Shown here in pieces: positions 2,107-62,880 of a stretch of DNA of 64,000 nucleotides. How positions within the stretch are numbered: position 1 is the first letter of the stretch; each line of letters begins with the position of its first letter. The notes beneath the pieces are model-generated. The model saw only the letters and a program-made list of their open reading frames with translations, did not search any database and had not been told where the DNA came from. Both the position numbers and the translations under genes were made by a program. This stretch comes from Octopus vulgaris (lineage: Eukaryota): NCBI GenBank assembly GCA_951406725.2, contig OX597815.1:149482001-149546000 (forward strand), in the 5' to 3' direction.

Positions 2107-2490
2107 TTTGTGCATGTGTGATATACATGTGTATGTGTGCGAATGTGTATCGGCAGAGCTTCTTTCCAAGAAGAATACCTGCTTGTATGGTTCCAAATTT
2201 CCTCTTATTTCTGTTCTAACCCACTGATGTTAACTTTGTCTTTTATTCTTCCTGGGTTTCATAAAAATCAAAGTAGCAGTTCTACGGATTCAGCTGAGCG
2301 GAAATGAAATATGGTCGCACCATACTCTCTGCTATATGTTATTGAGTATATTCTAAGTTCAAATACTGACATGCCATACATATGTAATATAATTATTCTC
2401 ACACCCTGTTAGCACCACTGCATGTCACCCCGCCTGCCTTAACTATATCCATTCCGTGATTGGGCACTGGTTTCTTTTCTTCTATTAGAG

Positions 2491-2677
2491 CAGTGCTCCG
2501 CAACCATTTTTCACACGTGGTACACTTATACTTTTTTTAAAATTCGGCGATACACCTGAACTAAAAATATTACCAAAAGTAATAGGGAAAGAAATTATAT
2601 TCAGGTTACACTGCTGCACACCTAGCATCGTTTCGTAGCACACCAATGTGCCGCAGCATACCTGTTGCGGCGCATTG
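2491..2677. mobile_element. hAT (Charlie-like) MITE
   Basis: Imperfect ~14-bp TIRs cagtgctccgcaac / gttgcggcgcattg. 8-bp flanks tattagag / tatatgag (6/8 match) fit a decayed TSD. Confidence 0.6.
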
Positions 2678-3473
2678 TATATGAGTGCCTTCTGCAGTCA
2701 GTTTCAGCAGCCTCAGATTCCTTACAATACGGTGATTGCTGTAAGGAACGTCACTCGAGTGATGGCCATACAAACACCCTTACACGCAAATACCCTTACA
2801 CGCAAACACCCTTTCATGCAAACACACACACGCACAAATACATAAATACGCATATAGAGACAACCATAAATACACATATACTCACAGATGATGATGAAGA
2901 TGCTGAGGATGATGATGAGGAGGAGAGTGGGCAGGGGAATGTCACTGCCTAACTATTCTCTTTAATATGGGGATAATGCTTGTAGTTCTAACATTCATTT
3001 ACACAGATGTGGCAAATATGGGAACCTCTTGCAGCAGGTGTTCAGAAAGCTTAGCTGCCACGCAGACACATGCCTTCAGTCCATCATGATTGCGTATTTT
3101 GCCATTTTCGTCTATGATCTGCCATTATGTGTAACATGTAATATAGACGTTGATTGAGACGTTAAAAACCCAGCGTTGCCTAAATTTAGTCAAAAATCTC
3201 GCACAGCACTAATCACAGTCTCCAAATAGCTTATGAATCTAACCAAGCAAAGAACAACTTGTCTACATCATTACATGCAAAAATAGTTGCAAGTGTTTGG
3301 TCAGAGTTTACCTTCGGGGAAAATGTTTACACAAAGACATGTGCACACGCACATAAACATATAATTACCTAGCTACCAATACGCACATATACACACACAC
3401 TCTCTCTCGCTCTCACAGAGAGAGAGAGTGTGTGTGTATATGTGCGTATTGGTAGCTAGGTAATATATGTATG

Positions 3474-3538
<65 letters not shown>

Positions 3539-3559
3539 TGATATACGTATATATATATA

Positions 3560-3631
<72 letters not shown>

Positions 3632-3737
3632 CATACATGTGTGTGTGTTTGCGGTTAAACATTTCATTAAAATATGCATCACCAGGAACTATTTTGTTAT
3701 ATCCTGTTCAATACAGCATTATTACCCCATTGGATAG

Positions 3738-4000
3738 CAGTCTTAGGGTGTGTCTCCAGTGCAAGTAACGTCATGCCTCCAAATATCTTTGAACAGAGAC
3801 TGAGGCTCGGTTCATAAGATGATGTGAAGATCTTGAACATTGTGGTCAGACTCAGGTTGGAGAGGTTTGCTGCTAGAACTTCATATTTTTGCAGTGGGAT
3901 TCGGCTGCTTGTTATACTTCCGGAAAGCGTCCGATGTAGTTGTCGAAGGATTTCTATGATTCAGCAGCCCCATTTCTGATCACCTAATCCCTCAGAATCT
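3738..4000 (+). mobile_element. Decayed Tc1/mariner-superfamily (maT/DD37D-like) transposase fragment
   Basis: Translates VLGCVSSASNVMPPNIFEQRLRL...LERFAART, then frameshifted remnants of the QQDSAPCHTS and WPPNSPD motifs. Contains stops and frameshifts. Confidence 0.6.
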
Positions 4001-4562
4001 GCGAAACACCCCCCCCCCACACACACACACACATACATATACATACAAACATACAGACACAAAATCTGTTACGCTTTTCTTTCATGGGAATGCAGTCATG
4101 CTGAGGTACCACCGCGAATTTGTAACACTTGGTTTCTTCATATCATCACATTTGCATGCGTTTCTCTGCTGGTTGTTGGTTTATTTGATGTATGAGAATG
4201 TTTTACACATCTACTCCCTTCTATAATTTTTCCCAGGGCGTTGACTGACAAGAGACGTGTTCAATTCTTTGTTCAATTCTTTGTTTGAAAGCTTCTATCT
4301 TGACAATGTGTACGTTTCTTGTGTAGGTTTCTTAAAAACTTTCAGCAAAGCGCTGAAGACCTGTAGACCTTAGAACCTTAAATTATTGAAATATCTGGTC
4401 CTCACTTAGAGGACGTAAACTGTGGTTTTGGTACTATGCAGTGGCTTCCTTTGTAGTAATTGTATTACTTTTCGTACCAAAATCAGGTACTAGCTCCTCC
4501 AAGATTTACCGCATGTACACAAATGCACAGGTTTGTGTGTCACATAGCTAGCTAGAGGCGCT

Positions 4563-59972: not shown

Positions 59973-61518
59973 ATCTGGACTCACGTAATATATCACAACA
60001 ATATAATATGAAAATATTTGCTATTATGAACAATGTAACATCATGAAATACAGCGACAACGTAAAACACATGCTATATGTGACATGCGTTGAAGATGACC
60101 TTTTATGAAAAATATTTCGGCAAAATATCCGAATCCATCAAATTACCTCTTTTTTAAATCTGACATGCGACACCTAATTATATTTGTATCTATCTGTAAT
60201 AGTACACTCAAAAATAAGCACGCCCACATACCCACTTATCCTAATCACGAACACGAACGCGCATACACATACGTCATCATCACAACCATCATCATCTTCG
60301 TGTATCATAATATGACAAAGTTGCACTGACCACACACGTCGGCAGTGCTTGAGTGAAACTGGTTCTCTAAAATGAGTGAGTGAATCCTTATATTCTTCTC
60401 ATATAATAATCGGAAAGAAATTATATTTTAACGCAAGAGTGTCATGAGCAGATTCACCAACAAATCATTCTACTCACATCGTTCAATTTGACACATAAAA
60501 ACACTGTCAGATATAGATAACAATTCATACTGTCATATCTATTTCTCAAATGCAAACAGACATTTATAATGTTTTCAAATCAACTTTTCAGTTGGAACAT
60601 CTTACATGAAATATGTTTATACTTTGCAATAAAATATTACAGTGTTTTTACTTCAAGAACAATTTTCATTTAAAAGAAAGCCTAATAGGAAAGTCAAAAT
60701 AATTACTTCTTGTAAATATGACACAATCGAATTCAACTATATTTTCCTATGACATTCTTGTGTCACAATATTTATAATGATTTTTAACATTTACATTAAG
60801 CAAGACATATTATATACATGAGAGAGGTGTAATTGATTGAATTGACGTCAATATCTGACTGCAAAGCTAGGAGGAAGGAAATAAATGTCAGTTCAAGACA
60901 TTTTCTGACAAATCTGAAGAATTTAAGCCTGAAGTTGCTGAATTCTTTCAACTGAAAGTATATTTTATAATGCAAGAGTGTAATAGTTTCCTTCGACAAC
61001 AACACAATAATCAGATTTGCTTTATCAATCAGGGTGATTAAACGCAGAGTAAATTTAAATGTTTTCCAAAAGTTAGTAGGAAAAAGGACACATTTATATA
61101 AGGAAAATCATGAATTCTGTTATTCTTTGGTTACACCTCTAAAACCGAATATTTTATTGAAATATATACCTCTTTATAACAACGCACATGGATAAATTTG
61201 CCCAAATCTGTTCGAGTGGATTACATCGAAAGGAAGCTGGAGGTAATACAAACTTCGTGTAGGAGAAGGAAAACTAAGAAAAAGTAGATTTAACATTGCC
61301 AAAAGCGGAGGATGCAGATGATACTCTACTGTGTCTGCTATTACTACTGCTGTTCTTGCGACTGCCACTGCTGCTGCTGTCACTACTGCTACTGTTAATA
61401 ATAATAATTTTTTCTACTATAGATACAAAACTTGAAATTTGGGGAAGGGAGAAAGTCGATTACATCGACCCCAGTGCTCCACTGGTACTTTTATAATAAT
61501 AATAATGATAATAACAAT

Positions 61519-61549
<31 letters not shown>

Positions 61550-61587
61550 TCACCACCACCAACAACAACAACAATAACAACAACAAC

Positions 61588-61672
<85 letters not shown>

Positions 61673-61734
61673 GAAACTAACACGTGAATACATTAATAAT
61701 AATAACATAGACAGAAACATACATACATACAACC

Positions 61735-62880
61735 TGCCACTTTGAAGACGATGTGTTTGCAATCCAGAAAATATCAACCTGATGCACAAAAGTGACAGAG
61801 ATGCAGGAAAGCAGTAAAATGTGACAACTGATGCAGAAGATATCACCCACATCATAAGCAGTTGTCCGAAAATGTCATCGCGATGCTATCTACCGATGAG
61901 ACATGATGTTAGAGCTAGGATACTGTATAAAGAGATCCGTCGAAAGTATAGCACCGAAGACAAAGAAATAAAAACCCATGGTTTTTGGTGCGTCTCCAAA
62001 GTCCATCCCCTCCTCACCGTGGTGGGGACGCTGGCAACGGGTAGTGTCAGAGCTATGCCGTCAGGAACTTCGGTTTCTGGTAGGGCCACCCAAGGCGGAT
62101 TGGTCTGACACCGAGTGGGTATTAGGGCCACAACCCGGCAGACGGGGCTCTGGTGAAAATCCTCGGAGTGTCTGTTTCGGGACCGGCGGCTCCTCGGTCG
62201 TTCTGTCCCTGCGTCTTCGGACAATCTGCGGCAAACAGGATGGCTCTGCATGCGGGATTGTTGGGGACCGCTTGTGAAATCCACATATTCCCACGAAACT
62301 TCTTCCATGGTAGAAGAAGCCGACTCAACCCGCCCAGGGTGAATGTCGCCACAACTACAAGTATGGTTTTTGGTGGAAGCTATAGACATACAATGAAATG
62401 GAGTATTGGTGAAATGTCCCAGTGAAAACCTCAATAAAATGTAAACAAAATATGCCTGGTAAAAGTATTGGGACCTGGGATATGGAACACTTCCTCAATA
62501 CCAATCTTGAGAAATCAGGCTTTTCAAAGCCAGAAAGTAGAAAGCTGTTTCCAAGACTACACATTCAATCCATCACTGGAACTGTAAAAATCTGTAAAAC
62601 ATCCCAGAAGTTTACCATTTATATATGTATGTGCATGTCTAGATATGCAGGTCTATGCATGTAAATAAATGCATTAAACAACACATACAAATCTGTACGT
62701 ATACATCCATACATCCATCCATTCATACATACATACATTCATACATACATGCATACATACATACATACAAAAATATCCTGTTGTCTGTGTTGAAATACAA
62801 ATGAATGAGCCTTGGATCTAGGTTAGTGACTGGCTCTTTCTCTATTGGCAAGAAATCTTGAAATAAAACTGAATAATGAT
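61735..62880 (+). mobile_element. Dong/R4-like LINE 3' part (zinc knuckle, deleted REL domain, 3' UTR, (ACAT)n tail), interrupted at 61991
   Basis: EDITHIISSCPKMSSRCYLPMRHDV..; EYW*NVPVKTSIKCK; LHIQSITGTVKICKT. Confidence 0.8.
61991..62362 (+). mobile_element. Complete 372-bp RTE-derived bipartite non-autonomous retroposon with 13-bp TSD
   Basis: TSD atggtttttggtg at 61978-61990 and 62363-62375. 5' part gagctatgccg..tagggccacccaaggcgg resembles RTE (BovB/Rex3) 5' UTRs. Tail acaactacaagt. Confidence 0.85.

Follow-up and report, generated by a model that had tools for sequence, protein, structure and literature searches.

The window, by which we mean the whole 64-kb stretch of DNA analysed, raises the question of what the structured 5' part of a short retroposon at 61990-62362 is and what it does. 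The sequence-only reading had described a compact pseudoknotted motif, possibly an uncharacterised ribozyme or a translation or RT-binding element. The answer that we modestly favour is that the locus is a high-copy RTE-type retroposon with a predicted HDV-like 5' ribozyme, whose P4 domain would aid the translation or protection of the RNA of full-length elements.

A high-copy mini-element and its RTE relatives

The mini-element (61990-62362, plus strand) is 372 bases long and occurs as a single copy within the 64-kb window. It is bordered by a perfect 13-bp TSD, whose left copy at 61978-61990 and right copy at 62363-62375, both on the plus strand, are identical. All the letters on which the sequence-only reading was built, this TSD included, are in place. 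Family variation was followed in contigs of four public runs from three organisms, aligned to 61880-62480, and the details of these alignments come from 32 of more than 10,000 pieces and from 40 of the 86 rows of substitutions. Per DNA run, 2360-4400 contigs could be aligned. Their depth rises at about 61990 and drops at 62363, where each DNA run has 60-73 loose ends. The family is thus high-copy in at least three organisms. Six listed contigs cross the 5' junction into outside flank; they start at 61984, 61989 (three contigs), 61990 and 61992. Since five of these six include G61990, the final base of the left TSD is likely derived from the element and is probably its first base too.

The host site (61880-61960 and 62384-62460) is itself an older high-copy repeat, other copies of which are insert-free; contig joints from 61976-78 to 62390-62424 are this flanking repeat without the insert. 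In run X11, which is RNA only by guess, depth on the element exceeds that on the flanking repeat, and this was not counted as evidence. The window also holds a long (AAC)/(AAT) microsatellite at 61500-61675 and a (TACA) microsatellite at 62700-62770. The microRNA matches of the Rfam scan fall on the latter and are artefacts.

The mini-element has no ORF, no protein match and no tRNA or 5S head, and the absence of a tRNA head noted earlier agrees with a 64-kb window in which no tRNA gene was found. An Rfam scan of the window at E<=10 returned no credible family over the element (best 13 bits, E 6.7), so that no known class covers it at this threshold, as had been proposed. The lack of an ORF and of a tRNA or 5S head, the TSD, the short-repeat tail and a 5' end from an RTE 5' UTR (matched by covariance model R1, described below, and by named RTE consensi) are the features of bipartite non-autonomous RTEs, and the earlier assignment to an RTE-derived non-autonomous element holds. 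The 3' part (62154-62362, plus strand) carries hairpins (folding z -2.25 for 62280-62363) and a short-repeat tail, for which contig loose ends suggest (CAAGT)/(AAGT) repeats. Two hairpins at 62299-62355 stand ahead of the tail and are a likely RT recognition site. We infer that the 3' part comes from an RTE 3' UTR. It gave no significant match to 108 relative loci and no match in the portion of the Kojima supplement (PMC5786205) that was searched, and a short-motif search of the PMC9115989 supplements outside files 5-8 found no partner LINE.

Relatives of the structured region were collected by a motif-pattern search of metagenomes, in which 15 of 64 parts were scanned and at least 108 loci were found. 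Full flanks were available for 93 of them, which form 30 groups at 85%. The pattern had 0 matches in viral contigs. Three matches in prokaryote genomes were treated as chance, as R1 matched none of them; locus L070 was not matched by R1 either. APE/RT matches follow downstream on the same strand in 17 of the 47 loci that offer 500 nt or more, against 2 of 70 with such matches upstream. Pfam recognised endonuclease or RT domains in five of six submitted ORFs of relatives, and the L039 ORF has full-length relatives that each form one frame of about 1060-1100 aa. The clade name RTE is used because the same region is found near the 5' ends, at positions of about 20-155, of named RTE, BovB and AviRTE consensi (supplement of PMC5786205). 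These consensi bear out the suggestion that the structured motif is common to BovB-type 5' UTRs. An Rfam scan of 12 relatives at E<=5 matched no ribozyme or cis-element family, and the Rfam HDV, CPEB3, twister, pistol, hatchet and hammerhead models matched neither the window nor these 12 relatives.

L006 (434 nt) and L058 (460 nt) are other mini-elements that start at P1; their TSDs are 13 bp long, and their tails are (GAT)n or (GAA)n repeats. L023, L060 and L064 begin with the ribozyme and its domain and reach the C-terminal end of an RT frame about 360 nt later, and are internally deleted copies. An apparent extra hairpin in L3, besides the P4 domain, is seen in L007:3956-4128(-), L029:3956-4116(-) and L082:256-413(-), which score 144.5, 56.9 and 46.3 bits with R1, respectively.

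The HDV-like frame in relatives and in the window

Of 96 loci with sufficient flank, an anchor parser could place P1, P2, P3, L3, P1.1, P4 and J4/2 in 69; the 27 failures are truncations, deletions, L3 inserts and one chance match. In a family-swap test, strands were exchanged among the 19 parsed of the 30 group representatives in 5000 permutations. P1 gave 120 against 104.3, P2 103 against 78.7 and P4 87 against 62.9, real values that no permutation reached, while those of P3 (54 against 46.2) and P1.1 (15 against 9.4) were reached by one and six permutations, respectively. Among the 19 representatives, G-C forms the single P1.1 pair 11 times and A-U four times. In an alignment of 17 relatives, 87.6% of cells are paired, compared with 35-52% in slid controls, and two-sided changes occur at 27 of 45 pairs, against a shuffle mean of 16.5. 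Thirteen representatives stand outside this alignment (L007, L017, L020, L029, L047, L054, L068, L070, L072, L081, L089, L101 and L104), which biases these figures in favour of structure. All five helices of the nested double pseudoknot, P1, P2, P3, P1.1 and P4, covary beyond the permutation and slide controls, and the covariation asked for in relatives of the motif is thereby present.

HDV ribozymes cleave at the first base of P1 (PMC4908430). In the L004 group, 11 of the 12 distinct flanks place the insertion 5' end at this base, and the remaining one is a one-base parser shift. In the L005 group 6 of 6 flanks do so, and the L003 group is noisier. The catalytic C of J4/2 is found in 62 of 69 parsed loci and is followed by N-A-A, two positions of which are partly fixed because the parser demanded a purine and an A or C there. 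P1 starts with C1-G37 in most groups, where HDV has G1-Y37, and a descriptor after PMC6326823 with a P3 mismatch allowed finds 21 of 96 relatives. Invariance of core bases in the collected loci is not evidence, since the search pattern had fixed most of them. On the pairing and the junctions, the relatives very probably self-cleave through an HDV-like ribozyme.

Model R1 was built from relatives with the window excluded. It matches the window at 61988-62142 over its full length (60.6 bits, E 6e-14; next site 11.8), and this segment is homologous to RTE 5' ends. A relaxed descriptor also finds a single site on both strands of the 64 kb and none in 3000 shuffles, a result to be read with the fact that the descriptor (after PMC6326823) was loosened post hoc, after inspection of the window sequence, to permit a P3 mismatch. 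No match to HDV had been seen earlier, but an HDV-like architecture with a 90-nt P4 extension fits once 61990-62153 (plus strand) is taken whole, and the motif, not a free-standing one, sits in its P4 arm.

All parts of this predicted fold are on the plus strand. P1 pairs 61990-96 with 62025-31, starting with G1-C37 and with U at -1, and a possible eighth pair is C61997-G62024. P3 and L3 occupy 62010-62024, where L3 (62014-20) carries U20, C24 and G25, and P3 contains a U-U mismatch (62011/62023). An upstream hairpin had been drawn at 62012-27; its pair probability is 0.01, and the stretch is the P3/L3/P1' part of the ribozyme. The 3' strand of P1.1 and J1.1/4 follow at 62032-62038, with the pairs U62032-A62016 and G62033-C62015 and the sequence G-C-A-A-C in J1.1/4. 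P4 (62038-42 with 62133-37) has a pair probability of 0.72-0.98 and is homologous to the covarying P4 of the relatives, although its letters differ. A family-specific extra hairpin, GTGG/CCAC at 62115-62131, is absent from the relatives. One G at 62117-19 is missing from about 60% of the aligned depth, and its loss affects only the loop of this hairpin, which becomes shorter. Within the region 62112-62140, part of the motif recurs as a second TAGGGCCAC at 62123-31, which builds the hairpin, and the GGG of the hairpin loop could pair with CCC 62134-36 in competition with P4. J4/2 and the 3' strand of P2 (62138-62153) hold the candidate general acid C62139, in C-A-G-A.

The 3' side of the core departs from that of the relatives. 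Their C-N-A-A is missing in the window family, in which GGG comes after C62143, and in the R1 alignment the 3' end of the window is placed elsewhere, with mismatches. C62139-A-G-A fits C-R-R-A with a 4-bp P2, whereas the homologous C62143 does not. P2 may form between 62006-09 and 62144-47 or between 62000-04 and 62145-49; folding with pseudoknots ignored gives the latter a probability above 0.9 and the P3-stacked P2 0.0. As predicted from these pairings, the catalytic core is rearranged in J4/2 and P2.

Other features are those of HDV, namely U20, C24 and G25 in L3, a 7-bp P1 with G1-Y37, P1.1 (with A22-U38 where the descriptor has C-G) and P4. The fully paired 3-bp P3 of HDV is replaced by one containing U62011-U62023, and the strict descriptor finds nothing in the window because of this pair; P3 mismatches occur in R2 ribozymes. 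The genomic HDV quadruple A43:C41:G73:C44 (PMC1874588) corresponds to A62037, C62035, G62137 and C62038, and all four bases are present. The shifted register thus combines G61990-C62031, U at -1, P1.1, G-C-A-A-C, G62137-G62138 and C62139-A-G-A. G62138 corresponds to HDV G74. The register is kept in both family alleles, and no site is found when the descriptor asks for A, G or U instead of the catalytic C. When the 5' half was fixed and 62112-62200 shuffled, the descriptor was completed in 278 of 5000 trials, which leaves the C62139 register with only moderate significance; a 5-bp P4 with G74 and C-N-R-A arose in 97 of 5000. Since the core of the family is rearranged, the chance that it cleaves, with C62139 as the putative acid, is about even.

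The opposite reading, that the window-family ribozyme is a dead relic whose precise 5' end is set by an internal promoter or by read-through ends and whose domain may act partly as DNA, has a chance only somewhat below even. It would explain the loss of C-N-A-A, the U-U pair in P3 and the ambiguous P2, and L1Tc Pr77, which is promoter and ribozyme at once, offers an analogy. It is opposed by the joint presence of P1.1, J1.1/4, G74 and C-A-G-A in the layout of genomic HDV in both alleles and by the 5' starts of other copies at or adjoining G61990, while compensatory changes in the domain indicate structure in RNA and argue against a role as DNA.

Two other cores were rejected. A catalytic C at 62111 would require a weak P4 and does not work in copies without the G at 62117, and a minimal ribozyme ending at 62046, examined by eye, offers no C-N-R-A together with a usable P2. 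An exact match of 15 nt (E 0.35) joins window 62137-62151 to L029 and L082, 47 nt past the motif, at a place that in L029 is downstream of the ribozyme. If it is homologous, the J4/2 candidate of the window was recruited from downstream sequence. The folding energy z is -2.34 for 62040-62115 and -0.24 for 61989-62125; by itself this is weak evidence, and the case against chance comes from the relatives.

The inner domain of the P4 arm and its proposed role

The 8-bp helix that had been named P1, GTGTCAGA at 62044-51 with TCTGACAC at 62104-11, is present and becomes P4a (62044-62111, plus strand), which closes the inner domain and is imperfect and partly covarying in relatives. The conserved inner domain itself (62051-62103, plus strand), delimited by the pairing and covariation of relatives and by the named consensi, consists of a loop strand AGCUAUG, a central helix (62058-62/62094-98), a variable hairpin (62063-78), the strand GGUAGGGCCACCCAA with a small GG(G)/(C)CC stem, and a loop strand AUUGG. 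A crossing helix 62053-55/62081-83 (CTA/TAG) is possible. Sequence comparison places this domain as an insert in the P4 arm of the predicted HDV-like ribozyme, common to many insect and vertebrate RTEs.

Pairing was counted in 72 distinct relatives from 104 loci, three short-core loci and L070 having been dropped. The five pairs of the central helix form in 72, 72, 66, 69 and 71 of the 72, and little covariation is visible in the core of these loci because the search pattern fixed many of its bases. Repbase consensi in the PMC5786205 supplement were therefore compared by eye, and two-sided changes were found at all five pairs: the helix reads CCATT/AATGG in BovB_Plat, TCGCC/GGCGA in RTE-4_PM and RTE-1_Gav, CCACC/GGTGG in afrotherian RTE1, TTGGC/GCCAG in AviRTE_GRu and CCGGC/GCCGG in insects. 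The crossing TGCC/GGCG proposed earlier was one register off: its strands are complementary, but 62058-62095 is paired in 0 of 72 and 0 of 17 relatives.

The hairpin at 62061-80 was described correctly, with eight pairs, two of them G-U, and a C(UUCG)G loop. It varies freely and covaries among relatives and is absent in L052 and BovB. Two majority changes in the family contigs, 62063 A>G and 62076 T>C, leave it paired. An extension of it, 62058-61/62077-80, forms in 65-68 of the 72 relatives; it was rejected as not general because neither the window nor mammalian RTE1 can form it. The GGG/CCC pairing exists as a small stem with one two-sided change (R4-1B_AC), set against several one-sided breaks. 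For CTA/TAG, the letters are complementary, whereas the crossing pseudoknot that they were said to form fared less well: the third pair is A-C in 16 of 72 relatives, and among the consensi a two-sided change to G-C in RTE-56_LMi and R4-1B_AC is opposed by breaks in RTE-7_PM and RTE-3_Crp. As the changes go both ways, a pseudoknot across the central helix is no more than plausible. In an alternative register, GCU/RGY at 62052-54/62079-81, the pairs form in 72, 68 and 71 of 72 relatives with one-sided changes only, and break in three Repbase consensi. The conserved AUG was discarded as a start codon since it is changed in L005, L023, RTE-56_LMi and RTE-7_PM.

The loop bases of the domain are kept from insects to mammals. 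They are also kept in Dong-2_Lch and R4-1B_AC, two carriers of the domain that are named as R4/Dong elements and may be chimeras. The 3' half of the domain is present in RTE-3_MD, and the RTE-tailed SINE-1_Pmo has no such domain by eye.

In the preferred reading, a read-through transcript would be cut at the first base of P1, leaving uncapped RNA. This RNA would then serve an RTE protein as the template for target-primed reverse transcription, which would start at the 3' tail and give rise to the TSD. Target-primed reverse transcription with a TSD is established for non-LTR elements. The inner domain would likely help the cut, uncapped RNA of full-length elements to be translated or protected, and the mini-element would carry it passively because it lies within the 5' ribozyme. 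The domain is common to elements with different proteins and absent from RTE-tailed SINE-1_Pmo, which points to the host side, and retrotransposon HDV-like ribozymes have been reported to support cap-independent translation (review). A host-facing role in translation or stability, judged from the distribution of the domain, is accordingly given a little less than an even chance. An action as a translation or protein-binding element, as first suggested, is plausible.

A bolder version holds that the domain is a portable, undescribed pseudoknotted module for translation or host factors, spread across RTE, BovB, AviRTE and R4/Dong, and that the window family rebuilt an active site of genomic-HDV type in a new register; we regard this as tentative. 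The main rival, because non-coding derivatives keep the domain, is that the element's own endonuclease-reverse transcriptase binds to it and that it promotes RNP assembly or formation of the 5' junction. By analogy, the R2 protein binds a pseudoknot in the extension of its HDV ribozyme (review), and the domain is kept in the non-coding window element, L006, L058, RTE1-N1_LA and the tRNA-headed SINE2-1_EC. Mini-elements are expected to keep it passively, SINE-1_Pmo has RTE parts but no domain, and the domain is shared with the two R4/Dong elements of different protein type (names only, possible chimeras), so that protein binding is rather unlikely. It is improbable that the domain serves solely as a peripheral aid to the folding, or the tuning, of the HDV core: drz-Agam-2-1 is accelerated almost 1000-fold by peripheral domains in J1/2 (PMC4908430), but P4 can be absent and has no tertiary contacts (PMC6326823), and the base-level conservation of the loops exceeds what folding needs. 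An independent second ribozyme belonging to a new class, close to the separate one first suspected, would suit a compact domain whose unpaired bases are conserved across distant animals and two element clades and match nothing in Rfam, but is very improbable, as the 5' junctions fall at P1 of the HDV frame, none of the listed loose ends lies inside the motif (the pattern being blind to copies cut inside), and internal cutting would strip the element of its 5' end.

Comparison with known ribozymes and elements

HDV-like ribozymes in RTE and R4 elements have been published (Ruminski et al. 2011, through PMC6765202, PMC3774820 and PMC5786205). The present fold shares with those of RTE the nested double pseudoknot at the exact 5' end, the cleavage site at the first base of P1, a P1.1 of one or two pairs and the occurrence in autonomous and non-autonomous elements. 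It differs in a P4 with a 55-90 nt multibranch domain that has conserved loops and a covarying central helix. In contrast to published HDV-like ribozymes, these are missed by Rfam models, the relatives have C1-G37, and the window has a rearranged J4/2 and P2; the fold accounts for the failure of Rfam. A literature search, mostly among papers outside subscription, found no published description of the P4 domain, and the 2011 RTE paper may show the arm.

Compared with genomic HDV, the window register has the same G1-Y37, U at -1 and two-pair P1.1, and the same G40-C41-A42-A43-C44 with G73-G74-C75, while A22-U38 replaces C22-G38, P3 contains U-U and P2 is short or bulged. Like drz-Agam-2-1 (Webb et al. 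2016, PMC4908430) and the R2 5' pseudoknot, the window fold joins an HDV-like core to a large structured peripheral domain. The domain of drz-Agam-2-1 lies in J1/2 and tunes catalysis, whereas that of the window lies in P4 and is conserved in sequence across distant animals. Twister T-variants of Perere-3, of the RTE clade (PMC8501958), likewise set the RTE 5' end beside the TSD by a ribozyme; that ribozyme is of a different class, and twister was matched neither in the window nor in the relatives.

Bipartite non-autonomous RTEs and RTE-derived SINE bodies are also known (Kojima 2018, PMC5786205: RTE1-N1_LA, RTESINE and SINE2-1_EC). The mini-element resembles them in being short and ORF-less, with no tRNA head, an RTE 5' end, a short-repeat tail and a TSD, and differs in that its 3' part matched none of the sequences compared. 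The supplement of that study aligns the same region among RTE, BovB, AviRTE and Dong sequences, and the accessible text notes the conserved 5' UTR sequence and proposes no structure for it (PMC5786205). RTE UTRs serve as templates for gene insertion and have been bettered by screening (PMC13708176, RTE-1_MD). The fold supplies a testable structural model for the 5' ends of a large RTE group including BovB and AviRTE, and makes a testable question of how uncapped, self-cleaved retrotransposon RNA is translated and protected. Set beside these systems, the locus represents a known ribozyme class with an apparently undescribed, covarying accessory domain.
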